A stretch of 64,000 nucleotides of DNA from an uncultured Woeseiaceae bacterium (GTDB lineage Bacteria; Pseudomonadota; Gammaproteobacteria; Steroidobacterales; Woeseiaceae): the NCBI GenBank assembly GCA_964275745.1, contig CAXYCT010000017.1, positions 34,171 through 98,170 on the forward strand. Direction: 5' to 3'. Below, one piece after another: positions 34,298 to 50,071 of the stretch (its first letter is position 1; each line of letters opens with the position of its first letter). The notes under the pieces are model-generated. The model had not been told where the DNA came from. It worked only from the letters and a program-made list of their open reading frames with translations, and did not search any database. The translations under genes were made by a program, and so were the position numbers.

Positions 34298-34813
34298 ATG
34301 ATGAAAAATAAATTAGACAAACTATATACTACTCAAGGGAAAGTAATTCCTGAGTGGATCGATATCAATGGTCATATGAATGTTGCTTATTATCTAAGAG
34401 CTTTTGATTTAGCTGTTGATAAACAATGGATTCAATTAGGAATGACGCAAGAATATATAGAGGTTGAGAAATTTTCGACTTTTTCTGTTGAGTGTCATAT
34501 CACCTATCAAAAAGAAATGAAGCTAGATGAAGAATTTATAATCGAATCGTCGATATTGGCCTATGATGAAAAACGAATTCATCTTTTTCAAACTATGCTA
34601 AATGCAAATAATAAAGAAATTACAGCAACGGCAGAATGGATGATTTTACATATAAATATGCGAACTCGAAAAGTCGCTCCATGGTCAGACAAAATTCTGG
34701 AATCAATAGAAAAAATGGTTTCAAATCAGGTAATTGCTAATTGGCCAAAAGAAGCTGGCAAAAAGATGGGTATCAAAATACCACTTTATTCTTTATTGGA
34801 CGAAGAGAATTAA
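34298..34813 (+). CDS. Acyl-CoA thioesterase (4HBT-type hot-dog fold)
   Basis: About 170 aa, with the DINGHMNVAYYLRAFD pattern. It follows the ligase stop (34293-34295) directly. The exact start is uncertain (ATG 34298 or 34301; the ORF opens at TTG 34292). Confidence 0.6.
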   Translation: MMKNKLDKLYTTQGKVIPEWIDINGHMNVAYYLRAFDLAVDKQWIQLGMTQEYIEVEKFSTFSVECHITYQKEMKLDEEFIIESSILAYDEKRIHLFQTMLNANNKEITATAEWMILHINMRTRKVAPWSDKILESIEKMVSNQVIANWPKEAGKKMGIKIPLYSLLDEEN

Positions 34814-36219
34814 GAATTACTCTTTATCTTTATCGGAAGTTTTATTTTAATCTCGAAATTATCTTTTGATGTAATGGCTTGTATTGTTCCCTTATTTAAT
34901 TCAATACCCTGTTTGGCAATGGCCAGCCCAAGACCAGAACCACTCTCATTTTCTTTTGTGTCTAATTGCTTTGATCGGTGAAAGGGTTCGAATATTTTTT
35001 CGCTATCTGATTGATTGACGCCTGAGCCATTATCGATCACTGATATTTGAATAATTTCTCTCTCTTTTGTTATTTCAAATAAGATGTCAGCACTGTTTGG
35101 TCCATATTTCACTGCATTACGTAAAATATTTTCTAGTGCACTTTTAAGAATAGATTCGTAACCAAAAAAATCTATACCAGGTATTGTCTTGAGAATTATT
35201 TTGTTATTTATTACTGAATTATTTTTGAATTCAAAATTAATATTTTCAATAACCTCATTTGCTAGTTCATTAAGGTTCATATATTTTTGAGGCTCATTTT
35301 TTGAGGCATCTAAACTAGAATATTTTAAGATACTACCAATTAACTCATCCAAAATAGTAATTTCTTTTTTGATTCGAAGGTATTCGATTTCACCATCGAT
35401 ATTTTTTTGATGAGCAATATCTAGCGCAACTAGCATTCTTGCCAGAGGAGAGCGAAGTTCATGCGAGATATTCCGAAGTAATTCTTCCGCCTGTTCTTCA
35501 TATTGAGATAATTTTCCGGACATTCTATTTATGTCACGAGCTAGGCTACCAATTTCATCTTTTCGATCACTTACCGATTCTGATACTTTAGTTAAGAAGT
35601 TACCACCAGCAATTGAGCGAGTTGCGTGTTTAAAATGCCTTATAGGCTTGGTTATGGCGCGTGAGAGTATATATGAGACTGAAATACTCAATAACATGAC
35701 ACAGATAAAAATTAACCAACGCATATTGTCATTAAATAAACCCTCCAAGGAGGTATTTTTTGGAAAAAAGTATAATTCAAAAATCTTTTTGTCTGGTCCA
35801 ATAAGAACAGATATTGAGTTTGCAGGTCTTAAATTATCTGGAATAATAAGATTTCTTCGCTCAGATTTTGTCCTTTTTAATTTTGGATTATGATGAGAGA
35901 GTTCAAAATGATTTTGCCAATTAACAATTCTTCTGGGAACCTTTCTTCCCAAAATATCTTCTTTGTTGTTATTCAGAAGAAATATTCTGAGTGGATATTG
36001 ATCTCTGTTATCAATATTTTTTAACCAAATTTTTAAGCCAGAGTATCCTTGTGTATTTAATATTTCTCCTGCTCTGATAACAGTCTCATCGATTTCAAAA
36101 TTAGTATAAATTTGTTCCATACGTTGATGATAGTAATAACCAGCCAAAGCCGCAAAGGTCATGGTGACAATAATTATCAACCAAAATGACGCAAAAATTC
36201 GAATAAATATATTTTTCAT
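34810..36219 (-). CDS. Sensor histidine kinase, CpxA-like
   Basis: It has two TM segments flanking a periplasmic region, a HAMP region, the H-box SHELRSPLARM, the N-box LRNAVKY and the G-boxes DNGSGV/GSGLGLAIAK. Confidence 0.85.
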   Translation of the reverse strand: MKNIFIRIFASFWLIIIVTMTFAALAGYYYHQRMEQIYTNFEIDETVIRAGEILNTQGYSGLKIWLKNIDNRDQYPLRIFLLNNNKEDILGRKVPRRIVNWQNHFELSHHNPKLKRTKSERRNLIIPDNLRPANSISVLIGPDKKIFELYFFPKNTSLEGLFNDNMRWLIFICVMLLSISVSYILSRAITKPIRHFKHATRSIAGGNFLTKVSESVSDRKDEIGSLARDINRMSGKLSQYEEQAEELLRNISHELRSPLARMLVALDIAHQKNIDGEIEYLRIKKEITILDELIGSILKYSSLDASKNEPQKYMNLNELANEVIENINFEFKNNSVINNKIILKTIPGIDFFGYESILKSALENILRNAVKYGPNSADILFEITKEREIIQISVIDNGSGVNQSDSEKIFEPFHRSKQLDTKENESGSGLGLAIAKQGIELNKGTIQAITSKDNFEIKIKLPIKIKSNS

Positions 36220-36227
36220 AGTTTAAA

Positions 36228-36935
36228 TTATTGATCGCCTATTAAGGCGTACCCAACTCCTCTTTGGCTATAGATAATGTCTTTTATTGCACCTAGTTTT
36301 TTAAGTTTTGTCCTTATATTGCTTATATGAGTATCAATACTTCTGTCGTAAGGAACGAATGAGCGCCCTAATGCATATTCACTTAATTCATCTTTATCCA
36401 CTGTATTACCTTGATTTATGGTAAGACAGGACAGTATTTCAAATTCTGTCCCAGTTAGTGTTAAGTTTAGATTATTGTATTTTGCTTGACGTGATTTTGC
36501 TGACAATTCAATCAGACCATAAGAGATATGATCTTGCTTGACATATTGTGATGAACGTCGAAGGATTGCTTTAATTCTTGCTAATAACTCTGGTGTACTA
36601 AAAGGTTTAGGAAGATAATCGTCAGCTCCAAGCTCAAGACCTAATATGCGATCTTTTTCTTCACCACTGGCCGTGAGCATTATTATAGGGATCGGATTAT
36701 CTTTTCTGATCTCTTTTAAGGTTGTTAATCCTGATATCCCCGGCAACATGATGTCTAAAATCAATAAATCATAATGGCCTAAAGAGCTAAGTGCATTTTC
36801 TTTGATTAGAGTAATTGCATGTTCACCACTGTGACAAGCCTCAACGTCTAATTGATATTGCGATAGAAAATCTTGCAATAATTCGCAAAGTTTTTTGTCA
36901 TCATCAATTAAAAGAATACTTTTTTTGCTGCTCAT
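36228..36935 (-). CDS. OmpR-family response regulator, CpxR-like
   Basis: The receiver domain (LLIDDD...LLILDIMLPG...K) plus a winged-helix output (…IDTHISNIRTKL…RGVGYAL). Confidence 0.9.
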   Translation of the reverse strand: MSSKKSILLIDDDKKLCELLQDFLSQYQLDVEACHSGEHAITLIKENALSSLGHYDLLILDIMLPGISGLTTLKEIRKDNPIPIIMLTASGEEKDRILGLELGADDYLPKPFSTPELLARIKAILRRSSQYVKQDHISYGLIELSAKSRQAKYNNLNLTLTGTEFEILSCLTINQGNTVDKDELSEYALGRSFVPYDRSIDTHISNIRTKLKKLGAIKDIIYSQRGVGYALIGDQ

Positions 36936-37108
36936 TATTTATTAAGCCTTAATTTTTTATAATATGTTTATTGTATTTTTGCATGCAAAGTTAATAATTA
37001 TTCTAATCTTTAACAATTCTTGACAATAATAAAAGATAATTGACAGTTATTTTAAGACTAATAAATTACTATTATTTAATAATAACCTTTATTAAGAGTT
37101 GAATAAGC

Positions 37109-37642
37109 ATGATAAATATTAAAATTATACTAATGGTATTAATGATGATGTTTGCATGCACTGTATCTGCAGATGATCCTGAAACTAAAGAAATGTTATG
37201 GGGTGGAAAATTTGAGAAGATATCAAAATTTTTAAATTTAGATTTAGATCAGCAGAAAACCATTAAATCCATAATGTATTCCTTATCTGAGGAAATGGGA
37301 AAGAATAAAGAGAGGTTAACAAGACAAAAGAAAGCTTTGATAAAGCTTGATCCTAATGAGGATGACTATAAGAATAAACTTCTAGAACTATCAAATGAAA
37401 CGACTGTATTGATAAAAGAGCAGATAATGTTGCGAGGTCTATCTCGCGAAAAAATCAATGACGAGCTTGATGCTGATCAGCGTAAACTGCTAGACAAAGT
37501 ATTTACTAATATTGATTCTAAGGAATTAAAAAGAAATAAATTTAAACGAAACAGTGACGAAAAAAAATCTGATCATAATATGAGAAAAATGAATGATAAA
37601 TTAGATCGACGACTGAAAAAAAAGCGACGAGACAAGAGTTAG
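37109..37642 (+). CDS. Periplasmic CpxP/Spy-like protein (tentative)
   Basis: It has a signal peptide, a helical Lys/Glu-rich sequence, two LxxQ-type motifs (DLDQQK, DADQRK) and a basic tail. It is divergent from the CpxRA-like pair, as cpxP is in E. coli. Confidence 0.4.
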   Translation: MINIKIILMVLMMMFACTVSADDPETKEMLWGGKFEKISKFLNLDLDQQKTIKSIMYSLSEEMGKNKERLTRQKKALIKLDPNEDDYKNKLLELSNETTVLIKEQIMLRGLSREKINDELDADQRKLLDKVFTNIDSKELKRNKFKRNSDEKKSDHNMRKMNDKLDRRLKKKRRDKS

Positions 37643-37668
37643 CTGAACTTAATATTTCCTCTATTAAA

Positions 37669-37694
37669 GCGGTCATTTATTGACCGTTTTTTTT
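37669..37694 (+). terminator. Rho-independent terminator
   Basis: Hairpin GCGGTCA-TTTAT-TGACCGT followed by a T8 run. Confidence 0.65.
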
Positions 37695-37854: not shown

Positions 37855-38789
37855 ATGCTGATTCAAAAATATTTTGTTGGTTTAATCTTAATTATATTGT
37901 TGCAAAGTTGTGGAGTGACATACAGCGGTATTGGTGGGGTATGTCTGGTTCTTCAGGTGGTAGCAGCAGCAGTGGCGGTATGTCTGGTTCTTCAGGTGGT
38001 AGCAGCAGCAGTGGCGGTATGTCTGGTTCTTCAGGTGGTAGCAGCAGCAGTGGCGGTATGTCTGGTTCTTCAGGTGGTAGCAGCAGCAGTGGCGGTATGT
38101 CTGGTTCTTCAGGTGGTAGCAGCAGCAGTGGCGGTATGTCTGGTTCTTCAGGTGGTAGCAGCAGCAGTGGCGGTATGTCTGGTTCTTCAGGTGGTAGCAG
38201 CAGCAGTGGCGGTATGTCTGGTTCTTCAGGTGGTAGCAGCAGCAGTGGCGGTATGTCTGGTTCTTCAGGTGGTAGCAGCAGCAGTGGCGGTATGTCTGGT
38301 TCTTCAGGTGGAATTCGTGGTATGGATGGCCGAGGGTCAGGAAACCAACAAAATAGTGGCATGAATTACCCAAGTGAAACAAATGCTGAAAAACAAGCTA
38401 GACTTGAGGGTGATCTCGAGAGATCAGTTGGCGGGCTAGATGAGGTTCTAGGTCAAGAACAAAAAGAGATAGATTCAGTGGGTCGCAACACAGAAGGTTT
38501 TGGTGGAGACTCAAGAAATGGAGGTGGCGTTGGTCTTGGAAAACAGTCATCAGGAGGTGGTCAGAGAGGTGGTGAAGGGGATATTTCCAGCTCAAATGCT
38601 AGCCCAAAAACTGCATCTGTTGGCCAATTGAGTCAGGAGGAAATAGATGCTAGGACACCTGATGATATTCCTGATCTAATCAGTGAAGATATAGTCGCAA
38701 AGCAGTTGCGCGAAGCCGCTCTAACTGAGGGAGATGTAAAACTAAGAGAGCGATTATGGGAAGAGTATAGGAATTACAATCGATTATAA
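37855..38789 (+). CDS. Ser/Gly-repeat lipoprotein, with signal peptide and body out of frame by 1 nt as given
   Basis: The lipoprotein leader MLIQKYFVGLILIILLQSCG is in the frame of 37855. The repeat body (MSGSSGGSSSSGG)x9.5 plus a 160-aa C-terminal region is in the frame of 37839..38789. One C missing at about 37937 relative to the repeat consensus (GTGGCGGT vs GTGGGGT) separates the two. Confidence 0.55.
37941..38311 (+). repeat. Perfect 39-bp tandem repeat, 9.5 copies
   Basis: The unit ATGTCTGGTTCTTCAGGTGGTAGCAGCAGCAGTGGCGGT starts at 37941 + 39k (k = 0..9) with no substitutions. The last copy is truncated after 20 nt. Confidence 0.95.
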
Positions 38790-38823
38790 ATAAGAATAAT
38801 CAAACTATTTTGGTGCATAAAAA

Positions 38824-40044
38824 ATGAAGATTTTTTTTATAATATGTATAACCTTGATTATAACTCCAGCTTGTACGGTTTCGGAGGTTATTGATGCAGA
38901 TAGAACAACTTTGGATATTGCCAGTTTAAATATATCCGAGAACTTATTATTGGATGTTGGTGTGGTTAAATTTGATCCTGGAATCCCAGAAGAAAATGAT
39001 GCTGATAAGACTGGTATTTATGAAGAGATAAGAGAAACAGAGTCTCGATTTTTTCCTTATCACATCAAAGCAACACTTGAAAAAACTGGATATTGGGGCT
39101 CAGTCAGAGTTATCCCCTCAAGAACTGTCATTACAGATGTAATTATTAGTGGAAGGATTATTCGATCAGATGGAGAATATGCTTCTTTGTTAATAAAAGT
39201 CGAGGATATTACCGGTGAAGAGTGGTTTTCTCGAGAATACTCTACACAAACAGGATTAAGGTCATATTCTGAGGGTAGAGATAGGGCTGTAGATCCCTAC
39301 CAAAAGATTTTTAATGATTTTGCAAATGACTTACGTTTTTTCGCCGCTTCATTGCACTCCTCCGACAATAAAAGAATTCAACAGATCTCAGAGCTAATGT
39401 TTTTTACAAATATGGTGCCTTCTGTCTATGAACCATACTTAAGTAATAAAAATAACTTCATTCAACTTGTAAGGCTGCCCCCAGAAAATGATCCAATGGT
39501 AAAAAGACTTCGTGGAATTAGAGAGCGTGATCGATTGGTTGTTGATTCCATCAATGAGCATTATGCTAATTATTATTATGGTGTTGCTTTACCCTATGAA
39601 GGCTGGAGAAAAAAAGCGCGTGAAAACCAAGTTAGTATTAGGGATACGAAGCGGGCTGCGACTGTTAGAGCACTAATAGGTGTAGCTGTTACTGCAGGCT
39701 CGATGAATATGGATACCAGAGATACAAGTCGCTCAAGAAGAAATATAAAAAGAGCCACTCAGAGTGTTGGAATGGACCGTGGAATTAGAACAATAATAGA
39801 GGCTTGGCAGTTAAGACAATCAACAAACTCTTATCGTGCACAAATTGGAGAATTGTCTGAGTCGTTTATCGCTGAGGCAGCACCTTTGGTTATAGAGGTA
39901 GAAGGGCAATCAAGACGATTAACGGGTACTGCCGAATCGCAATACGAGGGCTGGAGAAAGATTTTAAAAGAAATAAATCAACTTGAAACAGAGATTCCTA
40001 GTCTAGAAGTGATTGAAGAGCCTCTTCAAATTAGCGATCAATAG
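38824..40044 (+). CDS. Lipoprotein of unknown function (406 aa)
   Basis: Lipobox LIITPAC. It sits 34 nt after the previous gene. I recognise no family. Confidence 0.65.
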   Translation: MKIFFIICITLIITPACTVSEVIDADRTTLDIASLNISENLLLDVGVVKFDPGIPEENDADKTGIYEEIRETESRFFPYHIKATLEKTGYWGSVRVIPSRTVITDVIISGRIIRSDGEYASLLIKVEDITGEEWFSREYSTQTGLRSYSEGRDRAVDPYQKIFNDFANDLRFFAASLHSSDNKRIQQISELMFFTNMVPSVYEPYLSNKNNFIQLVRLPPENDPMVKRLRGIRERDRLVVDSINEHYANYYYGVALPYEGWRKKARENQVSIRDTKRAATVRALIGVAVTAGSMNMDTRDTSRSRRNIKRATQSVGMDRGIRTIIEAWQLRQSTNSYRAQIGELSESFIAEAAPLVIEVEGQSRRLTGTAESQYEGWRKILKEINQLETEIPSLEVIEEPLQISDQ

Positions 40045-40057
40045 ATAAATAATTGTT

Positions 40058-42307
40058 GTGTCTAAGTTAATTAAAGATTTAGTATTAAATCAACGTTATC
40101 AGCTGGTAAGACGTCTTGGTGAAGGCGGTATGGCGACTGTTTGGCTCGCTTTTGATAAGAAATTAGAGATCCAAGTTGCATTGAAATTTCTCCATAAAAC
40201 CTTACGAGAAAATTTAAATTATCATCGTGCTTTTAAGAGGGAATGGAAGATTGCAAGCCATCTTATTCATCCTAACATTGTTCGTGTTTATGAGTTTTAT
40301 GAGGATCCAGTACGACCATTTTACTCGATGCAATTTATAGATGGACCACCAATATCAATCCTTAGCAAAGATGATCCAAAAAATATTCTTCCCCCAATTA
40401 GTTTGATTGCTGATGCTATAGATTACGCACATTCAAGGGAGGTTATACATGGTGATATAAAACTACATAACATCCTTTTAGATAAAAAAGGGCAACCATT
40501 TTTAATAGATTTTGGTGTGGCTGCTACATTTTCAGAGCTTACATTAACAATGAATCATGAGACCCCTTCTAAAGCTCTGCATTGTAATGAAGATATAAAT
40601 TCATTGGGTAAGTTAATTTACGAAGTTATTTTTGGTATACCTTTATTAAATGATACCAATAATGTTCCTGCTTTTAGTGAGGAGTTAAATGCAGAATTAA
40701 AAGTATTATTAGAGAGAATGATAGTTATCAATTTGGATATAAGAATCTCAGCGAAGGATGTGAAAGATTATCTTGCAGAGATTGGATATTTGGGAGGCAA
40801 CGCCAATCTTAGAAAAATTGATAAGGAAGAGCTTATTCAAGTTAAACCAATTTCAGTTGATGATTTAAAACTTAATTCAAAATTATTAAATGAGGCAGAA
40901 AAAGAAACGAATGGCATCTCAAAAAGAAATTTTTATTCAAGCCTAGGGTTTATTTTAATTTTATTTATGATCGTGATTTTTGTTTTACCAAGCAGTATTA
41001 ACTCGAATAAAAATATTGAGGATGTTACTAAATATGAAACTAATATAACCAAAAATATTGTGACTGAAAGTGATAGTTTAATTAAAAAATCCAGAATAAA
41101 AACAGATGAGACGCTGAGCGAATTGGTAACTTTGATTGATTTTTTGCAAAAAAAAGGCGTCGAAAAATGGGGTGGGCAAGTATATCAAGATATTAAAAAT
41201 AACTACAAAGAAGGAGACTCTTTATACTTGAATGGCAGATATGAATTAGCTCAAAAAAAATATATTGATACTTTGAATGCCTTAAATAGTCTATCCGAAC
41301 AAATGAATGAGATTTTAATGCTAAATCTCAATGCTGGAAAGGAAGCGCTTAAAAATGATAATTTTAATGATGCCATTATGTTTTTTGATATCACAGTGTC
41401 AATATCTCCAGATAACATAGAGTATAGTGACTTCTATAAAAGAGCTTTAAATCTTGAGGAGTTAATTGATCTCACGAGTGAAGGAATAGTGTTAGAAGGT
41501 AAAATGGATTTAAATTTAGCTAGAAAGAGGTATATAGCGGCTCAAGAATTAGATCCAGAAAATGAATTAGTTCGAGAGTTATTGGAAAATATCGAATCTA
41601 AGATTACTCGAAATAAATTTGAAATAAGTATGTCGGAGGGATTCGCAGCTTTAACAAATTATGATTTTCAATCTGCGAGAGCTTTATTTGAATCTGCCAA
41701 AGAAATTGATACTAATTCTATAGAACCATTGGATGCCATGATTCAGTTAGAAGAAAAAGAAAAAGATGTCTCAATTTTATTTCTAGAGGCGGAAAGTAAA
41801 GGTCATGAAGATATCGAGCAGTGGGGTCTCGCGATAGATACATATCAAAAATTGATCGAAATTGATGGCGATTTACAATTTGCCAAAATTGGTTTAATGA
41901 GATCTAAGCGTCGCCAGCAATTCTCTGAGGAAATGCAAAAATATATTGATGACTACGATAGTTTAAGTGACTCAGTAATAATGAAACGAGCCACTAAACT
42001 TCTTTTAGAAGCAGTGAAGTTAGATGATAAACCTCGTCTAAGAGGTCAGATTGCCGAACTTAAGCGATTGTTGAAACGGGCAAATACACCAATAAAAATT
42101 ACAATCATCTCTGACAATATAACTAAAGTTAGGATCTTTAGAGTTAGTGAGCTAGAGGTATTTAATGTTAAGCAATTTTCTCTTCGTCCAGGAAATTATA
42201 TTGCAATTGGCATAAGGGATGGTTATCGAGATGTGCGTGAAGAATTTAGAGTAACACCAGAAATACCAATATCAGTAGTTACCGTTATATGTGAGGAAAA
42301 AGTTTGA
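40058..42307 (+). CDS. Hanks-type Ser/Thr protein kinase with a TM segment and a TPR-like/PEGA-like periplasmic region
   Basis: GTG start. Motifs present: G-loop LGEGGMATVW, VALKF Lys, catalytic HGDIKLHNILL (HRD with R->G), IDFGVAA, and a TM at FYSSLGFILILFMIVIFVLPS. A long helical-repeat region and a C-terminal beta-rich module follow. Confidence 0.75.
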   Translation: MSKLIKDLVLNQRYQLVRRLGEGGMATVWLAFDKKLEIQVALKFLHKTLRENLNYHRAFKREWKIASHLIHPNIVRVYEFYEDPVRPFYSMQFIDGPPISILSKDDPKNILPPISLIADAIDYAHSREVIHGDIKLHNILLDKKGQPFLIDFGVAATFSELTLTMNHETPSKALHCNEDINSLGKLIYEVIFGIPLLNDTNNVPAFSEELNAELKVLLERMIVINLDIRISAKDVKDYLAEIGYLGGNANLRKIDKEELIQVKPISVDDLKLNSKLLNEAEKETNGISKRNFYSSLGFILILFMIVIFVLPSSINSNKNIEDVTKYETNITKNIVTESDSLIKKSRIKTDETLSELVTLIDFLQKKGVEKWGGQVYQDIKNNYKEGDSLYLNGRYELAQKKYIDTLNALNSLSEQMNEILMLNLNAGKEALKNDNFNDAIMFFDITVSISPDNIEYSDFYKRALNLEELIDLTSEGIVLEGKMDLNLARKRYIAAQELDPENELVRELLENIESKITRNKFEISMSEGFAALTNYDFQSARALFESAKEIDTNSIEPLDAMIQLEEKEKDVSILFLEAESKGHEDIEQWGLAIDTYQKLIEIDGDLQFAKIGLMRSKRRQQFSEEMQKYIDDYDSLSDSVIMKRATKLLLEAVKLDDKPRLRGQIAELKRLLKRANTPIKITIISDNITKVRIFRVSELEVFNVKQFSLRPGNYIAIGIRDGYRDVREEFRVTPEIPISVVTVICEEKV

Positions 42308-44733
42308 ATATTTCTCATCTAATTATCAGAAAAGTTGGAAAAGACGATGAACAAATACTGTTAGCTGAGAGCCAATTCAGTATAGGGACTAATGAAGATT
42401 GTGATGTTTTAATTCCAGGCCCAGGAAATACCTCTTTCTTTTCTATATTTGTATTTAACAATGACTTATTTATAGAGAGAGAAGAAAAAATTATTCCAAT
42501 TAAGATAAATGAAACAAACTTAATTGATAAATTGATTCTGTGTGACCAAGATAAAATTGAATTATTTGGAATAGAAATTACTGTTGAATTTAATAATAAT
42601 GAGATTATCTTATTTTTAAATATGAAAAATAGTGATTATCTTACACAGCCTCCAGAATTTATTAACGATGATAGTAATAATTATACTGAAGAAATAGAAG
42701 CGAAAATATTTTCACGCAATACATCTAAATTAGACAATCATGAGTTCAATTTAAATAACAAATGGAAATTTGTTATATCTGCCATATTGATGGTATTAAT
42801 GTTTATTTCATATCTTATCTTTAGTTCATATTCTATAAAATTCAACATTGATCCTCCAGATATAGATTCATTATCTATAGAAGGTACCTGGTTTGAAGTT
42901 CCACTGGGAGATCGTTCTTTGTTAAGATCTGGAACTCATTCTTTACGAATTAAGAAAACAGGTTATTATGACTTGAATCAAACTTTTGTTGTGGGAGAAG
43001 TAGATGATTTGATAGTTCCAGTAATTATGAAGAAGTTACCAGGTATTGTTTCTATCTATACTAATGCAGGATTAAATGCTCAAATTTCGCTTAATGGCTC
43101 ACTAGGGGCAGAGGGCTCATTTGAAGCAAAAGCAATAGAGGCAGGACAATATATTTTAAATATTACCTCAGATCGTTTTTTGCCTTTTTCAGATAAAATA
43201 GAAATTAAAGGGATGAATATCAAACAACATATTTTTGTTGATCTGATTCCCAGATGGGCCAATATAAGTATCGATTCTATACCTTCGGATGCCGTTATTT
43301 ATAGTAAAAATATAAAAATTGGTAACACGCCGGCTAATTTAGAGTTAATGGAGGGCACCCATGATTTATTGATCATTAAACAAGGTTATCAAGCCTTTGA
43401 TGGAAGATTTTCTGTAAAGGCTAATACTAGTCAGACAATAAAATCTATAAATCTAGAACCAGCAAATGCAGAGTTGTCTATCAAGACAATTCCAGTTGGT
43501 GCGAATATTAAAGTGAATGGACGTTATAGAGGTCAATCCCCATTGATTTTATCATTAATGCCTGATGAGGATTATGTCATTGCTTTTTCAAAAAGTGGGT
43601 TTGATGTTACGGAGAGAAAAATATACTTAGATCCAGCTCAACAGCAATCAATAGAGGTTGATTTAACTGCTCGAGTAGGGAAAGTTATTATTTCGGTTAA
43701 CCCACCGGATGCAGACATATATATTGATAATAAAAAACGAGGAAAAGGCAAGTTAGAGATTGAATTACCTACAATGAGTCATGATTTACTGATAAAAAAA
43801 GAGGGTTATGCTCCTTTCATTCGTGAAATACTTCCAAGATTGGATTATTTACAAAATATAGATGTGAAATTACTTACTGAAGATGAGTTTAGATTGAGAG
43901 ATATTCAGTCTTCATTAACAAATTCACAAGGACAAGTATTAAGAAGGATTGAGGCAGGGAAGTTTGTCATGGGAGCATCCCGTCGAGAAATGGGACGACG
44001 GGCTAATGAAGTTATACGAAACGTTGAATTAACTAAGCCATTTTTTATTGGCATTAATGAGGTCACGAATAAAGAATTTTCAAGATTTCGTCGACTTAAC
44101 TCAGCTGCAGCTGATATTCATTCTTCACTCCTAGCAGATAATAATCCAGTAGTACTTGTTAGCTGGTCAGATGCTGTAGAATATTGTAATTGGCTTAGCA
44201 ACCTAGAAGGTTTGGAGCCTGCCTATGTAAAGCGTTTTGAAAAATGGGAAAGGAAAAAAACTGTTTCAAATGGGTACCGATTACCATCTGAAGCCGAATG
44301 GTCATGGTCAATTAGATATCAGACAAAGAATACTACAACTGCTTATCCATGGGGAAGCCGGCTACCTCCAAGACGTAATTATGCCAACCTTGCCGATTTT
44401 TCGGCACGAAATATACTGCCAAATATTCTGCAAAATTATGATGATGGATACGCTTCAACTTCACCGGTGGGATCATTTGGAGCAAACTCACTTGGAATTT
44501 TTGATGGAAGTGGTAATGTTTCAGAGTGGATTAGTGATTATTATTCAATTCCAACTCCTGGAATTACAGAGACTATAATCGATCCAAAAGGACCTGAGTA
44601 TGGAGTACAGCATGTTATTCGAGGTTCGAGCTGGCGTCATTCTAGTGTGACTAAGTTGAGAGGCAGTTTTAGAGATTTTGGAAGTAAAGGACAAATAGAT
44701 ATCGGTTTTAGATTAGCTAGAAATATTAATTAA
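42304..44733 (+). CDS. FHA-like domain / TM / five PEGA-like repeats / FGE(SUMF1)-fold domain protein
   Basis: TTG start overlapping the kinase stop (TTTGA) behind a GAGGA RBS. The N-terminus FSIGTNEDCDVLIPG...ELFGIEITVEF is FHA-like but degenerate, and the TM is WKFVISAILMVLMFISYLIF. The PEGA-like units include e.g. ISIDSIPSDAVIYSKNIKIGNTPANLELMEGTHDLLIIKQGY. The C-terminus carries RLPSEAEWSW, GNVSEWISDYY and RGSSWRH. Confidence 0.7.
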   Translation: MNISHLIIRKVGKDDEQILLAESQFSIGTNEDCDVLIPGPGNTSFFSIFVFNNDLFIEREEKIIPIKINETNLIDKLILCDQDKIELFGIEITVEFNNNEIILFLNMKNSDYLTQPPEFINDDSNNYTEEIEAKIFSRNTSKLDNHEFNLNNKWKFVISAILMVLMFISYLIFSSYSIKFNIDPPDIDSLSIEGTWFEVPLGDRSLLRSGTHSLRIKKTGYYDLNQTFVVGEVDDLIVPVIMKKLPGIVSIYTNAGLNAQISLNGSLGAEGSFEAKAIEAGQYILNITSDRFLPFSDKIEIKGMNIKQHIFVDLIPRWANISIDSIPSDAVIYSKNIKIGNTPANLELMEGTHDLLIIKQGYQAFDGRFSVKANTSQTIKSINLEPANAELSIKTIPVGANIKVNGRYRGQSPLILSLMPDEDYVIAFSKSGFDVTERKIYLDPAQQQSIEVDLTARVGKVIISVNPPDADIYIDNKKRGKGKLEIELPTMSHDLLIKKEGYAPFIREILPRLDYLQNIDVKLLTEDEFRLRDIQSSLTNSQGQVLRRIEAGKFVMGASRREMGRRANEVIRNVELTKPFFIGINEVTNKEFSRFRRLNSAAADIHSSLLADNNPVVLVSWSDAVEYCNWLSNLEGLEPAYVKRFEKWERKKTVSNGYRLPSEAEWSWSIRYQTKNTTTAYPWGSRLPPRRNYANLADFSARNILPNILQNYDDGYASTSPVGSFGANSLGIFDGSGNVSEWISDYYSIPTPGITETIIDPKGPEYGVQHVIRGSSWRHSSVTKLRGSFRDFGSKGQIDIGFRLARNIN

Positions 44734-44746
44734 CAAAATAAAAAAT

Positions 44747-45070
44747 GTGAAAAAAATGAAGTGCAGCATACGTATATATAAAAATATACTATTGATCTTA
44801 ATAGTATTTATATCTATTTCTTCTTCTTTTTCACAGGAAAATAACTCAGTGATTGAAACTTTAGATCCCCTCATGGAGAAAAACGAAAATCAAGATGCAG
44901 ATGCAATCCCAGTTAAAAAACTAGCGTCAAAATCGACTGATAACACTACTGATGAATCAGAAATAGTCTATGATATTGATGATCAATCATATGAAGAAGC
45001 TGATGATGATTTTATACCCTCAGAGGAGATACCAGCTGATGAGCCAATTCCATTTCCAACAAGTATCTAA
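44747..45070 (+). CDS. Small acidic secreted protein (107 aa)
   Basis: A signal peptide (ILLILIVFISISSSFSQ) followed by an Asp/Glu-rich, low-complexity sequence. The start is either GTG 44747 or ATG 44756. Confidence 0.5.
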   Translation: MKKMKCSIRIYKNILLILIVFISISSSFSQENNSVIETLDPLMEKNENQDADAIPVKKLASKSTDNTTDESEIVYDIDDQSYEEADDDFIPSEEIPADEPIPFPTSI

Positions 45071-45121
45071 AGAAAGTTTAATTTAAAATCATATTTATTT
45101 ATCAAATAAAGAGAAATATAG

Positions 45122-45928
45122 ATGAAAAAAAATAATATACCCATTGAATTTGTATACCAACTATTTGCTCTGATTATTGCAATTATTATTGTACATGGCT
45201 ATTACGTCTCAGTAGTGAGGCCAAATGCCAATCAAATAATTCTGGAGCAGAATATAGAAGCAGAGATGAATTCTGATTATATAAGAGAGAGATCCACCTG
45301 GGTCTTGGTTAAAGATTTAGAACAAGAATCATGCTTTGTATTGATGTTTTGGGCGCTCGCAATTATGGGTTTTAAAGCTAATTCTCTTCTAAGGGAGAGG
45401 AAATTACTTGATGAAAATTTAATATCTATAGTGGATGGCATGAAGATTCTTCCAGAAGATACTCGGAATTTGGAGAGACAAATTGAAGTTTTATCTGATA
45501 AACAAAAAGCAATGGTTTTACCAAGAGCTCTACTAAATGCCTTGAGAAGGTTTGGTACTTCGAAAAATATTCAAGATGTGTCTGTGAATACACACACGAT
45601 TTTTGACTCAGAAGCTGAAAGATTGGAGTCAGAGCTTTCGATGATCCGTTATATTTCCTGGGCGATTCCATCAATAGGATTTATAGGTACAGTTAGAGGT
45701 ATTGGTGATGCACTAGGTCAGGCTGATATTGCTGTTCAAGGTGATATCTCAGGAGTAACACAAAGTCTTGGAGTGGCATTTAATTCAACTTTTATTGCAC
45801 TTTTGATTAGTATTTTTTTGATGTTTTTGGTACATCAATTGCAGTTATTACAAGAAAGGCTTGTTTTTGATAGCGAAAATTATGCGAATGACCGACTGAT
45901 TCGACATATGAAAATAGACGTAAATTAA
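45122..45928 (+). CDS. MotA/TolQ/ExbB-family proton-channel protein
   Basis: The N-terminal TM helices and the C-terminal signature AIPSIGFIGTVRGIGDALG...GVAFNSTFIALLISIFLMFLV parallel ExbB/TolQ (…GLFGTVWGI…AL.TTA.GL…). Confidence 0.75.
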   Translation: MKKNNIPIEFVYQLFALIIAIIIVHGYYVSVVRPNANQIILEQNIEAEMNSDYIRERSTWVLVKDLEQESCFVLMFWALAIMGFKANSLLRERKLLDENLISIVDGMKILPEDTRNLERQIEVLSDKQKAMVLPRALLNALRRFGTSKNIQDVSVNTHTIFDSEAERLESELSMIRYISWAIPSIGFIGTVRGIGDALGQADIAVQGDISGVTQSLGVAFNSTFIALLISIFLMFLVHQLQLLQERLVFDSENYANDRLIRHMKIDVN

Positions 45929-45935
45929 AGACTAG

Positions 45936-47312
45936 GTGAAGAAATTGTCATACGCAACCTTATATGTGAATGATGCTAATATAACTCTTTTGGAAGATGG
46001 GAAGATTTTATACTGCCAACCAAGTTGTGTTTGGGTAAAAAATGATGAGATTGAGTTTGGTGCTCAGGCACTTAGTAAATCTCGCATCATGCCGCAAAAT
46101 ATAGATACTCATTATTGGTCAAATCTTTCTACGTTAAAATATACAAGTGATCATAATAAGCACATCTCTTCAGCAGATATTGTAAGTCGAGAGCTCGAGA
46201 TTATAAATTCAATTAAGTCTGATGATTTACCGTTGCTGATCGTCATACCTCCGTATTTAAATAATCAGCAGCTAAGCTTATTTCTTGGTATTGCAAATGA
46301 TTTGGATATAAAAATTTTAGGCTTTATAGAGTCATCAATAGCATCAACACGGCGCGAGTATATTGCTGCTAAGTTAGTACATATTGATCTTCACTTACAT
46401 TGCCTATCTCTATCTCTAATGAGTCAAACCGATAAATTGAGTGCTGATAAAATGTTTATTATCGATGACTGTGGACAGTCTGAATTTGACGCATCTTGGA
46501 TAAAAATGATATCTCAATCTTTTATTAAGCAATGTAGATTTGACCCGCTCTATGCTGCTGAATCTGACCAGCAGATAATTAATAATTTGTCATTCTGGGT
46601 GGCAAAATCAATATCTCAGAAAACTGTCCATCTAGAAATTGAATATGGTAATCAAGTCTATGAAAGTGATATAAATTCATCAGATTTTATTGAAGCGGTT
46701 ATGCCTCTTTATAAACATATTATCAATAAATTAAGAGCCATATTTGAGGCAGAGGATTTACCCGCTATTCAGTTAACAAATTTGATTGCCAAACTTCCTG
46801 GGTTGGCGATTTTAATGAAACAAAAGTTATCAGCTGCAGTTTATGAGAATGATGAAGGTTGTGCTGTCATTGGAGCTTCAGAAAGATTTTCAATTAAGGA
46901 GCAAGAAGATGGTCCTCTAAAAATTATTAAATCATTACCATTGGATCAATCTGCAATTTCGATTAATAAAGTTAATACTGAATCTACTAATAATGATAAA
47001 CCAAGTCACATCTTATTTGAAAATATTGCTTATCCTATAAGTTTGACGCCGATAATGATTGGATCTGATCCCACGCAGACAGATAATATTTTACCAATTT
47101 CATCAAATAAAACAGGTATCTCAAGAGATCATTGTTCGCTATTTGTTAAAAACAACAAATGCATCCTTAATGATTTGAGTCGATATGGAACTTACCTGAA
47201 TAACCAAAGAGTTGAAGGACCGTCAATAGTAAGTGTTGGGGATAAAATTAGAATTGGTTCTCCTGGTATAGAAATAACCTTAATTACAATAAGGAAGGCT
47301 ATTGGCTCGTAG
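45936..47312 (+). CDS. Degenerate Hsp70/actin-fold domain + C-terminal FHA domain protein (cytoplasmic)
   Basis: LLIVIPPYLNNQQLSLFLGIANDLDIKILGFIESSIAST mirrors DnaK's VITVPAYFND.QR...AG..V.RIINEPTAAA. The phosphate motifs are degenerate (LYVNDAN; IDLHLHC). The C-terminal FHA reads IGSDP...ISRDHCSL...NDLSRYGTYLNNQRV. GTG start. Confidence 0.6.
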   Translation: MKKLSYATLYVNDANITLLEDGKILYCQPSCVWVKNDEIEFGAQALSKSRIMPQNIDTHYWSNLSTLKYTSDHNKHISSADIVSRELEIINSIKSDDLPLLIVIPPYLNNQQLSLFLGIANDLDIKILGFIESSIASTRREYIAAKLVHIDLHLHCLSLSLMSQTDKLSADKMFIIDDCGQSEFDASWIKMISQSFIKQCRFDPLYAAESDQQIINNLSFWVAKSISQKTVHLEIEYGNQVYESDINSSDFIEAVMPLYKHIINKLRAIFEAEDLPAIQLTNLIAKLPGLAILMKQKLSAAVYENDEGCAVIGASERFSIKEQEDGPLKIIKSLPLDQSAISINKVNTESTNNDKPSHILFENIAYPISLTPIMIGSDPTQTDNILPISSNKTGISRDHCSLFVKNNKCILNDLSRYGTYLNNQRVEGPSIVSVGDKIRIGSPGIEITLITIRKAIGS

Positions 47313-48396
47313 AAGAAGACAAACTGAAGTATTTAGCTTGTCATTTCTGGATTGCATGTGTTGTGGTTTTGGCGCTGTAATTTTACTTTTTATGATTATA
47401 AATTCACAAATTAAGAATCAAGTTAATGTAGATCAAACATATCCTGAAAATAAAGCTAACCAATTAAAGTTTGATTTATTAGAAACTAAAAAACGCCTTG
47501 TTTTAGCTAAAGATACCTTTAAAGATCTTGATCAACAAAATACTGCTATTGAAAACGAAATCGATCAAATGTTATTGCTATTGAAGCAATTAAAGAGAGA
47601 ACTGGAAGAGGGAAGTCTTGATACGTTAGCCAAAAATGAAAGTATTGAAAAATTAAAATCAGATATTGAAAAATTAGATCAGGAGCGAGAGAGAATGCTC
47701 GCAGTTGCTTCTCGGGTTAAATCTGGTGGGCAAGTCAGGAGCTTCACTGGTGATGGTGATCGCCAGTATCTAACTGGCTTAAAGGTGGGTGGCGAGAGAA
47801 TTTTGTTACTCATCGATACATCAGCCAGCATGCTGGATCGAAAAATAATTAATATTCTTAGACGTAGAAATATGTCGGATGAAGTTAAACTTAGATCTGA
47901 GAAATGGCGACAAGCAGTCTCTAGTATAGATTGGCTTGCCGCCCAATTTCCAAAAGAAAGTCAGTTTCAAATTTATACTTTTAATAATATGACTAAATCT
48001 GTAGTTGCTGATAGTGCTGGTGATTGGGTTGATGTTGGAGATGGAAAAGAACTGGATGATGCTATAAAGACGTTACGCCGAACTATTCCTCAAAATGGAA
48101 CAAATCTTAAAGATGCATTCACAATCATAAATCAATTAAATCCCCGTCCAGATAACGTTATTCTTTTGATAGATAGCTTACCGACTATGAATAAAGCTGA
48201 AACTGACCGAGGTATGATTACAGGTCAAGAACGTCTTAATCTATACTATGAAGCTGAAACTGAAATACCAAGTGGTATACCAATGAATATATTGCTTTAT
48301 CCTATGGAGGGTGATTATAACGCTGCCATTGCTTATTGGTTATTAGCTTACCGAACTGGTGGCTCATTTATGAGTATCAGCAAGGACTGGCCTTAG
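47302..48396 (+). CDS. ExbD/TolR-like TM anchor + coiled coil + vWA domain protein 1
   Basis: TTG start after an AAGGAAGG RBS. The N-terminus is MARRRRQTEVFSLSFLDCMCCGFGAVILLF (basic stretch, then a TM with Asp). A heptad-rich region follows, then a vWA domain with the MIDAS motif LLIDTSASM. Confidence 0.7.
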   Translation: MARRRRQTEVFSLSFLDCMCCGFGAVILLFMIINSQIKNQVNVDQTYPENKANQLKFDLLETKKRLVLAKDTFKDLDQQNTAIENEIDQMLLLLKQLKRELEEGSLDTLAKNESIEKLKSDIEKLDQERERMLAVASRVKSGGQVRSFTGDGDRQYLTGLKVGGERILLLIDTSASMLDRKIINILRRRNMSDEVKLRSEKWRQAVSSIDWLAAQFPKESQFQIYTFNNMTKSVVADSAGDWVDVGDGKELDDAIKTLRRTIPQNGTNLKDAFTIINQLNPRPDNVILLIDSLPTMNKAETDRGMITGQERLNLYYEAETEIPSGIPMNILLYPMEGDYNAAIAYWLLAYRTGGSFMSISKDWP

Positions 48397-48404
48397 GAGA
48401 TGCA

Positions 48405-49391
48405 ATGAGAAAACGAAGAAATATTGAAGCTTTTAGCCTCTCTTTTTTGGATTGCATATGTTGTGGCTTTGGTGCTGTCGTATTGTTGTTGGTTCTAAGT
48501 AAGCTTTATGATCCTAATTTTGTGTCTACAGATGAAGCTTCAGATGAAGTAATTATTTCTTTAGAAGAGCAGTTAAAAAATGCTCAAGATGAGGTAATAA
48601 ATACCATAAATTCTAGAAATAATGTTAAAAAAGAAGTTACTGATAAAAAAGTTAATTTAGATATTCTACAAAATGAATTGAAGAGTGTGAAGGGCAGGTA
48701 TGAGTTAAGTTTATCTGAACCAGAGATGCTTCAGGCGAGTGAGGATAATCTTGAGGAGGCAAAACAGAAAATTTCAGAAGAAATAAAAAGATTACAACCT
48801 AATTATAAAAGAGCAGCAAATGAAGCAATAGGTGGAATTCCTGTCGACAGTGAGTACATTATTTTTGTCATCGATACATCAGGAAGCATGCAATCCAAAT
48901 GGGCATGGGCGGAGAGAAAATTAGGAGAAGTATTAGATGTTTACCCAACAGTAAAGGGTTTACAAATAATGAATGATAATGGCAGTTTTATGTTTCAACA
49001 ATATGGACGTAATTGGCTCCCAGATACCCCTCAACTAAGGCAATCAATAAAGAATACAATGCGTCAATGGGCGCCTTTTAGTGACAGTGATCCTTCTGAT
49101 GGAATTATATATGCCATCCAGTCATTTTGGTCACCAGAAAAAAAGATAAGTATCTATGTTTTTGGTGATGAATTTCAAGGAAACTCTATGGAGAAGGTAT
49201 TAAGAGATATTGATCGAATTAATATTGAGAACGAGGAAGGAGATCGCCTTGTTAGGATTCACGCTGTTGGTTTCCCCTATTCTTTTGGTGGAAGAAGTAT
49301 TCCTCAGAGTTCCCAAAGATTTGCTGGGCTGATGCGACTTTTGTGCGAGAGGAATGGTGGAACGTTCGTGGCGTTAACAAATAATGATTAA
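48405..49391 (+). CDS. ExbD/TolR-like TM anchor + coiled coil + vWA domain protein 2 (paralogue)
   Basis: ATG 48405 after an AGGAGA RBS. The N-terminus is MRKRRNIEAFSLSFLDCICCGFGAVVLLL, followed by a coiled-coil-like region and a vWA domain with the MIDAS motif FVIDTSGSM. The ORF-track start at 48336 overlaps the previous gene. Confidence 0.7.
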   Translation: MRKRRNIEAFSLSFLDCICCGFGAVVLLLVLSKLYDPNFVSTDEASDEVIISLEEQLKNAQDEVINTINSRNNVKKEVTDKKVNLDILQNELKSVKGRYELSLSEPEMLQASEDNLEEAKQKISEEIKRLQPNYKRAANEAIGGIPVDSEYIIFVIDTSGSMQSKWAWAERKLGEVLDVYPTVKGLQIMNDNGSFMFQQYGRNWLPDTPQLRQSIKNTMRQWAPFSDSDPSDGIIYAIQSFWSPEKKISIYVFGDEFQGNSMEKVLRDIDRINIENEEGDRLVRIHAVGFPYSFGGRSIPQSSQRFAGLMRLLCERNGGTFVALTNND

Positions 49392-49399
49392 TAAAAAGT

Positions 49400-49431
49400 A
49401 ACCCCAGCTTATTATGACTGGGGTTTTTTGT
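49400..49431. terminator. Bidirectional rho-independent terminator
   Basis: Hairpin AACCCCAG (49400-49407) / CTGGGGTT (49418-49425) followed by a T run, with an A-rich tract on the 5' side. It lies between convergent genes. Confidence 0.8.
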
Positions 49432-49439
49432 TTCATTTA

Positions 49440-49886
49440 TTATTCTATAATAAATGAGCCTTTCATGATTGCGTAGTGTCCTGGAAATGTACAAAAGTAG
49501 GTATAATTTGTTGAGCTATCTAATGAGCTTAAATCAAATGTTACTGATGACTCTTGCCCTCCACCGATCATGTCAGTAGCAGCGATGATTCTTTCATCAC
49601 TCTCGGGGAGATAGCCTGGAGCTCCAGCTTGCATAGCAGCACCTGTTAGTGGCATCATATTTTCAGTGGTACTTAATACCCAGTTATGACCCATGAATTG
49701 TTGTGGAAGATTACCAACATGTTTCAGAGTAACGGTAAGACTTGTGCAGCCAGAACTAACTTTCATTTCTTTCATATTAAATTGCATTGCATCGTTTGAT
49801 TCAATTACTTGAGTGCAGTCTTGCGCGAACGATATATTTGTTATACTGGATAATAGTAATACTGCAGCAAAATAGGTAAATTTCAT
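49440..49886 (-). CDS. azu: Azurin (blue copper protein)
   Basis: A signal peptide, then CTQVIESNDAMQFN...MGHNWVLS...YFCTFPGHYAIMKG. The Cu ligands His, Cys, His and Met are in the canonical azurin context. ATG 49886 lies behind an AGGAGA RBS. Confidence 0.9.
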   Translation of the reverse strand: MKFTYFAAVLLLSSITNISFAQDCTQVIESNDAMQFNMKEMKVSSGCTSLTVTLKHVGNLPQQFMGHNWVLSTTENMMPLTGAAMQAGAPGYLPESDERIIAATDMIGGGQESSVTFDLSSLDSSTNYTYFCTFPGHYAIMKGSFIIE

Positions 49887-50071
49887 TATATTCTCTCCTG
49901 CCTTGATGTAGGTTAAGGCAATCATTGTTAAGTGAATGTAAAATAAGATAAATTACACAATTAATTATACTTATAATCCAATATATAAATTACTTTTCAG
50001 TTTTTATTAATCTAGATATTTATTTTAAGGTAGTAATAATGAACATATCTTGTTAGCTGTATTATATTACG

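Follow-up and report, generated by a model that had tools for sequence, protein, structure and literature searches.

A conserved nine-gene cluster of an uncultured Woeseiaceae bacterium as a candidate phospho-regulated trans-envelope motor with vWA heads

What would a bacterium do with a run of genes that combines a MotA/TolQ/ExbB-type channel, two membrane-anchored von Willebrand factor A (vWA) proteins, a Hanks-type Ser/Thr kinase and forkhead-associated (FHA) modules? The question is raised by a stretch of 64,000 nucleotides from an uncultured Woeseiaceae bacterium (GenBank assembly GCA_964275745.1, contig CAXYCT010000017.1, positions 34,171 to 98,170), hereafter the window, to which all positions refer. 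Nine open reading frames (ORF1 to ORF9) follow one another on its + strand between 37855 and 49391. A first description made from the letters alone, which we call the sequence-only reading, had proposed that they form a machine driven by the proton-motive force (PMF) and regulated by phospho-Thr signalling. We find that the nine genes form one system. The reading that we put forward, with roughly even confidence, is that they encode a PMF-driven trans-envelope motor of the 5:2 type with force transfer through vWA heads and with FHA/phospho-Thr control, likely serving envelope maintenance or surface-layer handling.

Gene order, boundaries and genomic setting

The case for a single system comes from other genomes. 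The ORF8 family comprises 1,548 protein clusters at 50% identity (E≤1e-3), most of the best 150 being full length, and relatives turn up in at least 597 genomes when each GTDB species is represented by one genome. The nine window proteins were mapped onto the 80 closest loci of these relatives. Where at least 9 kb of upstream sequence was available, the genes for ORF2, the kinase, the PEGA/FGE protein, the MotA-like channel, the Hsp70/FHA protein and the two vWA proteins stand in the same order in 45 of 47 loci; ORF8 and ORF9 are present in all 47, and ORF1 is detectable in 37. These long loci span Woeseiaceae, other Gammaproteobacteria including Pseudomonadales, Acidobacteriota (Marinacidobacterales, uncultured metagenome-assembled genome) and Desulfobacterota, and the order recurs in shorter loci from Vicinamibacteria and Kiritimatiellia. 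The neighbourhood search that had been suggested as a check on the grouping thus reveals co-occurrence far beyond chance.

A metagenome scan seeded with the most divergent ORF8 relatives identified a second (type-II) architecture, represented by loci L092-L119, in which the MotA-like, Hsp70/FHA, vWA-A and vWA-B genes are the only genes of the cluster. A GTDB locus, L063, is of this minimal kind too, with the four-gene motor module and without ORF1 to ORF4. Type-II loci also contain a convergent downstream gene for a 565-residue tetratricopeptide repeat (TPR) protein that has no kinase domain and is a homologue of the half of ORF3 that lies in the periplasm, together with two unknown genes and, upstream, divergent genes for Gly-zipper and DUF4136 lipoproteins. 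An assignment of kinases beside type-II motors was withdrawn, as Pfam shows TPR proteins that match only the periplasmic part of ORF3. Because the type-II architecture has no kinase nearby, the kinase module is lineage-specific. The four-gene motor module and the TPR element thus form the invariant core, and the kinase, the PEGA/FGE arm and ORF1, ORF2 and ORF5 make up a widespread accessory set.

The layout of the window agrees with the grouping. The junctions from ORF1 to ORF9 measure +34, +13, −4, +13, +51, +7, −11 and +8 nucleotides, the last counted from ATG 48405 and not from TTG 48336, since the homologues of ORF9 start with MRKRR. An intrinsic terminator at 37666-37690 (+ strand), a 10-bp stem followed by a T-run, ends the upstream cpxP-like gene and marks the 5' boundary of the operon. 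A bidirectional intrinsic terminator at 49400-49425, whose hairpin (ΔG −14.7, z −3.2) is preceded by an A-run and followed by a T-run, is common to the operon and the convergent azurin gene. The terminator-bounded unit of the sequence-only reading is therefore retained; its nine-ORF operon is supported by the spacing, the terminators and eight intact frames out of nine, but the frame of ORF1 is broken.

Because the order is identical over several phyla and the motor genes stay together in both architectures, we conclude that the nine genes belong to one system. It is very unlikely that the cluster consists of two unrelated adjacent modules, one with the lipoproteins, kinase and PEGA/FGE protein and the other with the MotA, FHA and vWA proteins. 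The motor module does occur without ORF1 to ORF4 in type-II loci and in L063, and the two halves lie on opposite strands in a Myxococcales locus (L048). However, the halves are co-linear in different phyla, a scan of the window found no terminator between them that scores as well as the boundary hairpins, a homologue of the ORF3 TPR part is linked to type-II motors, and the kinase is paired with an FHA reader in the motor half.

In its genomic context the cluster looks like core chromosome content and not a defence island, as the sequence-only reading had held. The base composition of the operon is similar to that of the remainder of the window, except for the GC-rich repeat; the source is a marine member of the Woeseiaceae with a low GC content (~35%). 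Genes for a pterin-4a dehydratase and a PALP enzyme lie downstream, and this arrangement is common to ~25 Woeseiaceae relatives. ORF6 is 76-94% identical across Woeseiaceae, its database matches at 94% being labelled Woeseiaceae bacterium, and entries 100% identical to ORF2 and ORF7 are found on dozens of contigs, Tara Oceans assemblies included. A tblastn search with ORF8 against 72,556 plasmids gave zero matches, and a mobile origin of the cluster was dropped on that account. PADLOC returned generic kinase matches among the window ORFs and nothing defence-specific.

These observations bear directly on a Zorya-like anti-phage or conflict system, in which the motor would sense perturbation of the envelope by a phage and signal via the kinase and FHA proteins. 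Zorya is built around the ZorAB 5:2 motor. In addition, ORF3 resembles defence-associated kinases in PADLOC, and the conflict systems catalogued in PMC7159879 repeatedly contain vWA, FHA and FGE-fold domains. However, the ZorA match (E 0.0014) covers the shared channel region only, and ZorB, ZorC and ZorD have no match. The cluster has no nuclease, protease, NTPase or other effector and no MoxR or STAND genes, and its position and neighbours are conserved among the relatives. With matches that are generic, an effector that is absent and synteny that is conserved, the defence reading was rejected as highly improbable; both it and the two-module alternative fit the conservation data poorly.

Several neighbouring genes deserve mention. 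The region directly upstream of the operon (34810-37642) has two genes on the − strand that resemble those of Cpx, one for a histidine kinase (CpxA, 2.7e-63) and one for a response regulator (CpxR, 8.3e-58); both are best matches that fall below cutoff. In the cpxP position this region holds a divergent 177-residue secreted, highly charged helical protein without a family match, and locus L001 has an LTXXQ/CpxP-family gene ~2 kb upstream. The azurin gene (TIGR02695, 1.4e-44; 49440-49925, − strand) converges on the operon terminator and takes the position at which relatives carry a tenth gene, namely an OmpA-domain coiled-coil protein in 26 Woeseiaceae-type loci and a lipoprotein in 22 others, neither of which is found in the window. 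The sole tRNA gene of the window is a tRNA-Met (CAT) at 1058-1134.

The motor core

ORF6 (45122-45928, +) encodes the MotA/TolQ/ExbB-family channel subunit. It matches MotA_ExbB at 9.3e-14 and TolQ at 2.8e-6, with ExbB at 1.2e-4 and well below cutoff, and the channel assignment of the sequence-only reading is confirmed by the first of these; a phmmer search against the PDB found nothing. T190 (in GFIGTVRGIG) and T223 (in AFNSTF) are invariant across 26 diverse homologues, so that each of the two pore helices has such a Thr, and both probably face the channel lumen. Residues 72-90 form an extra, moderately hydrophobic and highly conserved segment, CFxLMFWAxAIMGxK, which follows an invariant D.EQE. 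Rates of change are uneven within the cluster: over a comparable Woeseiaceae range ORF6 still shows ~76-78% identity, and the adjacent ORF7 is down to ~36-38%.

The two proteins predicted to insert their N-terminal helices into this channel are encoded by ORF8 (47302-48396, +) and ORF9 (48405-49391, +). ORF8, transpore-helix protein A, consists of a basic N-terminal tail, a transmembrane (TM) helix with D17 (FSLSFLDC), a coiled coil of ~115 residues and a vWA domain with a metal ion-dependent adhesion site (MIDAS; DTSAS…GT…D). ORF9, transpore-helix protein B, has D16 in its TM helix, a coiled coil and a vWA-like domain with DTSGS. D17 is invariant in 40 sequences and D16 is present in at least 90% of homologues; the N-terminal helix of ORF8 carries the motif FSLSFLDCxCCGFGA, with no His and no SHLS. 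In Pfam, VWA_2 scores 25.3 bits in the window ORF8 against a cutoff of 27, but among 40 family members 31 match it (best 4.5e-10), and 28 match VWA_3. The ORF8 family profile matches the vWA domain of ITIH4 (1.5e-5), and the MIDAS residues DxSxS, T and D are conserved. ORF9 is a full-length paralogue of ORF8 (24% identical; hhalign probability 100%, E 3e-58), and the vWA assignment proposed for both proteins is thus well founded.

The same cannot be said of their description as ExbD/TolR-like anchors. Assignment to ExbD by hidden Markov model (HMM) failed for all 40 family members, and an ExbD/MotB domain is found neither in these nor in the nine ORFs; the likeness consists of a basic N-terminal tail and one TM helix with an invariant Asp. 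Nevertheless, the MotA_ExbB and TolQ matches of ORF6, its invariant Thr residues, the Asp in the TM helices of ORF8 and ORF9, and the lack of an ExbD, TolR or MotB gene together support a motor. The conserved Asp and Thr residues fit the PMF-driven periplasmic machine proposed earlier, and it is from them that we infer force transduction. The proposed distribution of domains between periplasm and cytoplasm is plausible, given single hydrophobic segments with Lys and Arg enriched on their N-terminal side.

Control proteins, periplasmic arm and tethered proteins

In both architectures the gene for ORF7 (45936-47312, +) is invariably placed after the MotA-like gene and before the vWA pair. It encodes a cytoplasmic protein with an Hsp70 nucleotide-binding domain (NBD) fold, degenerate phosphate loops and a C-terminal FHA domain. 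In an AlphaFold2 model (pLDDT 89.9) the N-terminal ~330 residues match Hsp70 NBDs (Foldseek E ~1e-16, TM-score ~0.7), and the family consensus reads NDA[GN]I for DLGTT and DLxLH for DLGGGT in the phosphate loops. ORF7 thus resembles Hsp70 chaperones in NBD fold, but the intact loops are absent and the substrate-binding domain is replaced by the FHA domain (Pfam 1.9e-12), in which SRxH and NG are kept. All parts of the degenerate Hsp70-fold plus FHA assignment are borne out.

ORF3 (40058-42307, +) is a Hanks-type Ser/Thr kinase with one TM segment (296-314), a periplasmic TPR-like region and a C-terminal β domain. The Pkinase match (1.4e-26, Pfam) and the TM segment agree with the earlier assignment; the TPR part of that assignment is weak in the window protein but clear in type-II homologues of the same region. 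The kinase is of the non-RD type (HGD) and looks active, as read from residues K43, DFG and the catalytic Asn, which are kept. Around the related loci neither a PP2C phosphatase nor any other family is conserved. Regulation through phospho-Thr has a kinase and a potential reader in ORF7, but it lacks a conserved phosphatase and, in the type-II architecture, the kinase as well, and does not extend to the whole family.

Alternatively, the cluster could be a signalling device in which the kinase, FHA and Hsp70-like proteins provide the output, and the motor and vWA heads sense the mechanical state of the periplasm or cell wall. The sensor-like periplasmic TPR region of ORF3, two FHA-type modules that face the cytoplasm and the adjoining Cpx-like envelope-stress two-component system would all suit such a device. 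We nevertheless consider it quite unlikely, as the cluster has no conserved transcription factor or other output domain, type-II systems retain motor, vWA pair and FHA protein without a kinase, and the invariant proton-path residues argue for an energised motor.

ORF4 (42304-44733, +) begins with a degenerate FHA-like domain, from which a linker leads to a TM segment (156-174); five PEGA-type β-sandwiches follow, and the head is Cys-less with an FGE/PorK-GldK-like lectin fold. PEGA is matched at 1e-39 over the whole protein; when fragments are scored separately, three of the five proposed repeats are strong and two fall below cutoff. The head matches FGE-sulfatase at 9e-42 in Pfam, both catalytic Cys are replaced relative to human FGE (CYRYRC aligns to vtklrg), and the proposed Cys-less FGE fold is thereby corroborated. 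The C-terminus also matches PorK/GldK structures (~5e-12), and the GldK model matches at 3.4e-30 in the FGE-fold part only (105.7 bits vs a cutoff of 350), with GldJ at 3.4e-10. Its sequence places the head among the non-catalytic, PorK/PvdO-type lectin-fold modules. At the other end, FHA matches are weak (E 1e-3 to 8e-3; afadin 1e-3, Ki-67 8e-3), as is the hhalign comparison with the ORF7 FHA domain (E 3e-3, probability 10%), and the FHA module proposed here survives as a degenerate domain without phospho-Thr-binding residues. The linker from this domain to the TM segment (residues 105-120, within 42304-42753) contains an invariant Ser/Thr/Pro motif, E[DG]SAYVTxPPE (S110, T114, P117), in which T114 is a candidate phosphosite for the ORF3 kinase.

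The remaining proteins, ORF1, ORF2 and ORF5, have no Pfam, NCBIfam or PADLOC match. ORF2 (38824-40044, +) is a lipoprotein of 406 residues that combines an α/β domain (~40-215) with a long hairpin of helices (224-349) and a small β unit. A profile of its homologues found nothing in the PDB, and its AlphaFold2 model (pLDDT 73.6) gives a hint of a TolB-N- or LptE-like fold, the Foldseek matches to these two being weak and below threshold (E 2e-3 to 7e-3). ORF5 (44747-45070, +) is a small secreted acidic disordered protein of 107 residues whose C-terminus has the conserved motif F[IV]P[ST]E[EK]I..D..[VI].FP, and its position between ORF4 and the MotA-like gene is usually filled by a small secreted acidic protein with the same motif.

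ORF1 (37855-38789, +) is a lipoprotein with the lipobox LLQSC, a disordered Ser/Gly linker and conserved helical motifs ending DDIVAKQLREAA..E.D..LRERLWEEYRNY. In the window its lipoprotein signal, MLIQKYFVGLILIILLQSC, starts at 37855 in a frame that differs from that of the repeat and C-terminus (the frame of 37839, ending at 38789), so the earlier description as a Ser/Gly repeat lipoprotein is right about the lipobox and the repeat but places together elements that lie in two frames. The split is due to a 1-nucleotide deletion near 37937 (37930-37945), where the window reads GGTGGGGT and seven conspecific assemblies read GGTGGCGGT; over a longer view the window has GGTATTGGTGGGGTATG and these seven independent assemblies have GGTATTGGTGGCGGTATG. 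ORF1 is a single intact lipoprotein in L083-L089, which are of the same species, and is also intact in homologues at L001, L003 and other loci. Programmed frameshifting or phase variation was rejected, because the seven assemblies carry the extra base and no homopolymer is present; a deletion or assembly error is the simpler reading, and represents either an assembly or sequencing error or genuine pseudogenisation in the window genome. The repeat itself has a 39-nucleotide unit in 9.7 copies (37934-38311) that encodes the 13-residue unit GMSGSSGGSSSSG. Eight copies are found in L089 (a long contig) and one or two in short-read assemblies, two of which have N-gaps; these differences most likely reflect collapse of the repeat in short-read assembly, and the linker may also vary genuinely in length. 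Homologues share the lipobox, a long low-complexity Ser/Gly/Pro linker, quite different in other genera, and the terminal motif DDIVA[RK]QLREAA..E.DP.LRE.LW.EYR.Y.

Known systems and a proposed mechanism

Full-text literature searches for this domain combination returned only two relevant papers, PMC12204202 and PMC11761067, the other hits being unrelated conflict systems described by the Aravind laboratory. The first (Mol Biol Evol 2025) predicts a class of force transducers, 'TPH-vWA', from a TolQ-like gene with a heterologous TM-anchored vWA pair that carries a conserved Asp and has no tolR or exbD beside it. It uses an Idiomarina loihiensis seed, finds such systems in Proteobacteria and Planctomycetes–Verrucomicrobia–Chlamydiae (PVC) bacteria, models a 5:2 complex with an Asp/Thr ring by AF3, and suggests a gliding-type role for vWA transducers, with no phenotype. 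ORF6, ORF8 and ORF9 share the TolQ-family gene, the lack of tolR, exbD and motB, the Asp helix, the vWA domain, the heterologous pair and the conserved Thr, the comparison being one of described features. The window cluster adds the Hsp70-like/FHA, kinase, PEGA/FGE and lipoprotein genes, which are absent from that paper and its supplements, and its carriers also include Acidobacteriota, Desulfobacterota and Myxococcota. The sequence-only reading could not map the combination onto a known system; this holds for the cluster beyond shared domains, but the motor core of ORF6, ORF8 and ORF9 was already predicted in 2025, and it is the conserved partner genes, that of ORF7 included, and the two architectures that appear to be unreported.

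Characterised systems share domains with the cluster and none matches it gene for gene, be it Tol-Pal, TonB-ExbBD, MotAB, Zorya, the type IX secretion system (T9SS) or the type VI secretion system (T6SS). Tol-Pal has in common the TolQ-family channel, a dimeric Asp-bearing plug, a periplasm-spanning helix and outer-membrane lipoprotein partners, to which the OmpA/Pal-like tenth gene of relatives and the faint, sub-threshold TolB-N-like fold of ORF2 may be added. However, the TolR periplasmic domain, TolA (SHLS, TolA-III), the TolB β-propeller and Pal are missing from the nine ORFs, and the window plug carries a distal vWA head alongside cytoplasmic FHA, kinase and Hsp70-like parts. There is no ExbD or TonB_C match in the nine ORFs to suggest TonB-ExbBD, and unlike MotAB/PomAB the plug ends in a vWA and not an OmpA-like domain, with no flagellar genes nearby. 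T6SS resembles the cluster in the PpkA-Fha1-PppA set, where a membrane Hanks kinase with a periplasmic domain and a cytoplasmic FHA protein act on an envelope machine. PpkA itself carries a vWA domain. The window differs in having no T6SS core genes and no PP2C, an FHA domain fused to an Hsp70-like fold, and a vWA domain on the motor plug.

There are architectural parallels with gliding machines. In the Agl-Glt model of PMC11761067, AglQ and AglS form a heterodimeric plug in the AglR pentamer, and GltG, whose FHA domain and TM segment lead into a long arm in the periplasm, is predicted to bind this motor. A heterodimeric plug combined with an FHA-TM side arm, as we suppose for the window cluster, would thus have a precedent in AglR5QS-GltG. 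The likeness, which also includes TPR proteins and a vWA gripping element (CglB), is one of architecture only. In the window the vWA domain sits on the plug and not on an outer-membrane adhesin, GltA/B/H/K barrels and GltI/AglZ/MglA are absent, and a kinase and an Hsp70-like protein are present instead. T9SS (PorLM-PorKN/GldKLMN) likewise combines a 5:2-type motor with a non-catalytic FGE-fold protein, but ORF6, ORF8 and ORF9 are unrelated to PorL/PorM by HMM, GldL/M/N, PorN and Sov are absent, and in ORF4 the FGE-fold domain is not part of an outer-membrane lipoprotein ring but is held at the inner membrane by PEGA repeats.

An apparatus for surface motility, adhesion or surface-polymer transport of the Agl-Glt/Nfs or Gld type, in which the vWA heads and the PorK/GldK/GldJ-like protein are moved for gliding, attachment or the export and arrangement of a surface layer, is therefore worth weighing. 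Besides the resemblance of ORF4 to these proteins and the shared Agl-Glt parts, the role suggested for vWA transducers in PMC12204202 and the presence of particle- and sediment-associated taxa among the carriers speak for it. Even so we regard it as unlikely: no outer-membrane β-barrel, secretin, GldL/M/N, GltA/B/H/K, glycosyltransferase or exporter gene is conserved in or beside the cluster, the GldK score stays far under its cutoff with the FGE-fold part alone matching, and the vWA heads, with their inner-membrane anchor, are not exposed at the surface.

The mechanism we propose for the PMF-driven motor runs as follows. ORF6 would form a pentamer in the membrane, with ORF8 and ORF9 as a heterodimeric plug whose Asp-bearing N-terminal helices lie inside it, like ExbD, TolR, MotB or AglQS in known motors. 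Proton flow would turn or stroke the dimer, and the coiled coils of ~115 residues (~17 nm if fully helical) would carry two MIDAS vWA heads over the periplasm, where they would grip a ligand. Speculatively, this ligand may be the acidic C-terminal motifs of ORF1 and ORF5 and/or the lipoprotein ORF2. ORF4 would act as a TolA/GltG-like side arm, with its FHA-like domain in the cytoplasm, five PEGA domains as a stalk and a PorK-like head, and could serve as a scaffold or make contact with the cell wall or outer membrane. The ORF3 kinase may sense the periplasm through its TPR/β region and phosphorylate a Thr, possibly T114 of ORF4; the FHA domain of ORF7 would then read the mark, and its ATP-dead Hsp70-like body may function as a clamp, scaffold or clutch on the motor. 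An envelope role is favoured because of the OmpA and lipoprotein tenth genes, the TolB-N/LptE-like hint in ORF2, the Cpx-like system upstream and the core-like behaviour of the cluster, none of which is decisive.

Several points weigh against this proposal. Stoichiometry, ion dependence and rotation are inferred from sequence, neither ORF8 nor ORF9 nor any of their 40 relatives gives an ExbD HMM match, and ORF6 may have a MotA-like topology with four TM segments rather than a TolQ/ExbB-like one with three. The FHA-like domain of ORF4 has GT and PGPG in place of the phosphate-binding GR and SxxH, and the canonical FHA Arg is replaced in ORF7 (family consensus LGS). Because type-II loci have no kinase and no phosphatase is conserved, phospho-control may be accessory, or the FHA domain may act independently of phosphorylation. 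Furthermore, the vWA ligands named above are a guess, and the fold match of ORF2 is below significance. A further-reaching idea, which we offer only tentatively, is that the cluster represents a phylogenetically widespread fourth branch of TolQ/ExbB/MotA-type systems, in which the plug itself transduces force, integrin-like MIDAS heads grip short acidic C-terminal motifs of disordered, tethered proteins in the periplasm or outer membrane, and a pseudo-Hsp70-FHA clutch reads Ser/Thr phosphorylation and couples or uncouples the motor from the cytoplasmic side.

To our knowledge, ion-driven 5:2 motors (MotAB, ExbBD, TolQR, PorLM, AglRQS and ZorAB) are the sole route by which energy reaches the periplasm and outer membrane of diderm bacteria, and each new client system of such a motor has brought new biology. 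The family described here is large and resides in marine and sediment lineages that are abundant but have few members in culture, such as Woeseiaceae, Vicinamibacteria and Desulfobacterota. Our analysis extends the 2025 prediction in several ways: (i) an ATP-dead Hsp70-fold/FHA protein is an invariant partner of the motor; (ii) in a common nine-gene form the motor is joined by a Hanks kinase, by tethered proteins that end in conserved motifs and by a PorK-like scaffold whose stalk consists of PEGA domains; and (iii) at least two architectures exist. It also provides concrete candidates for a ligand, a regulator and a phosphosite. If the proposed mechanism is true, eukaryote-like phospho-signalling would be linked to mechanical work in the bacterial envelope, and the cluster would be the first case of direct coupling between a Hanks kinase and a 5:2 ion motor.

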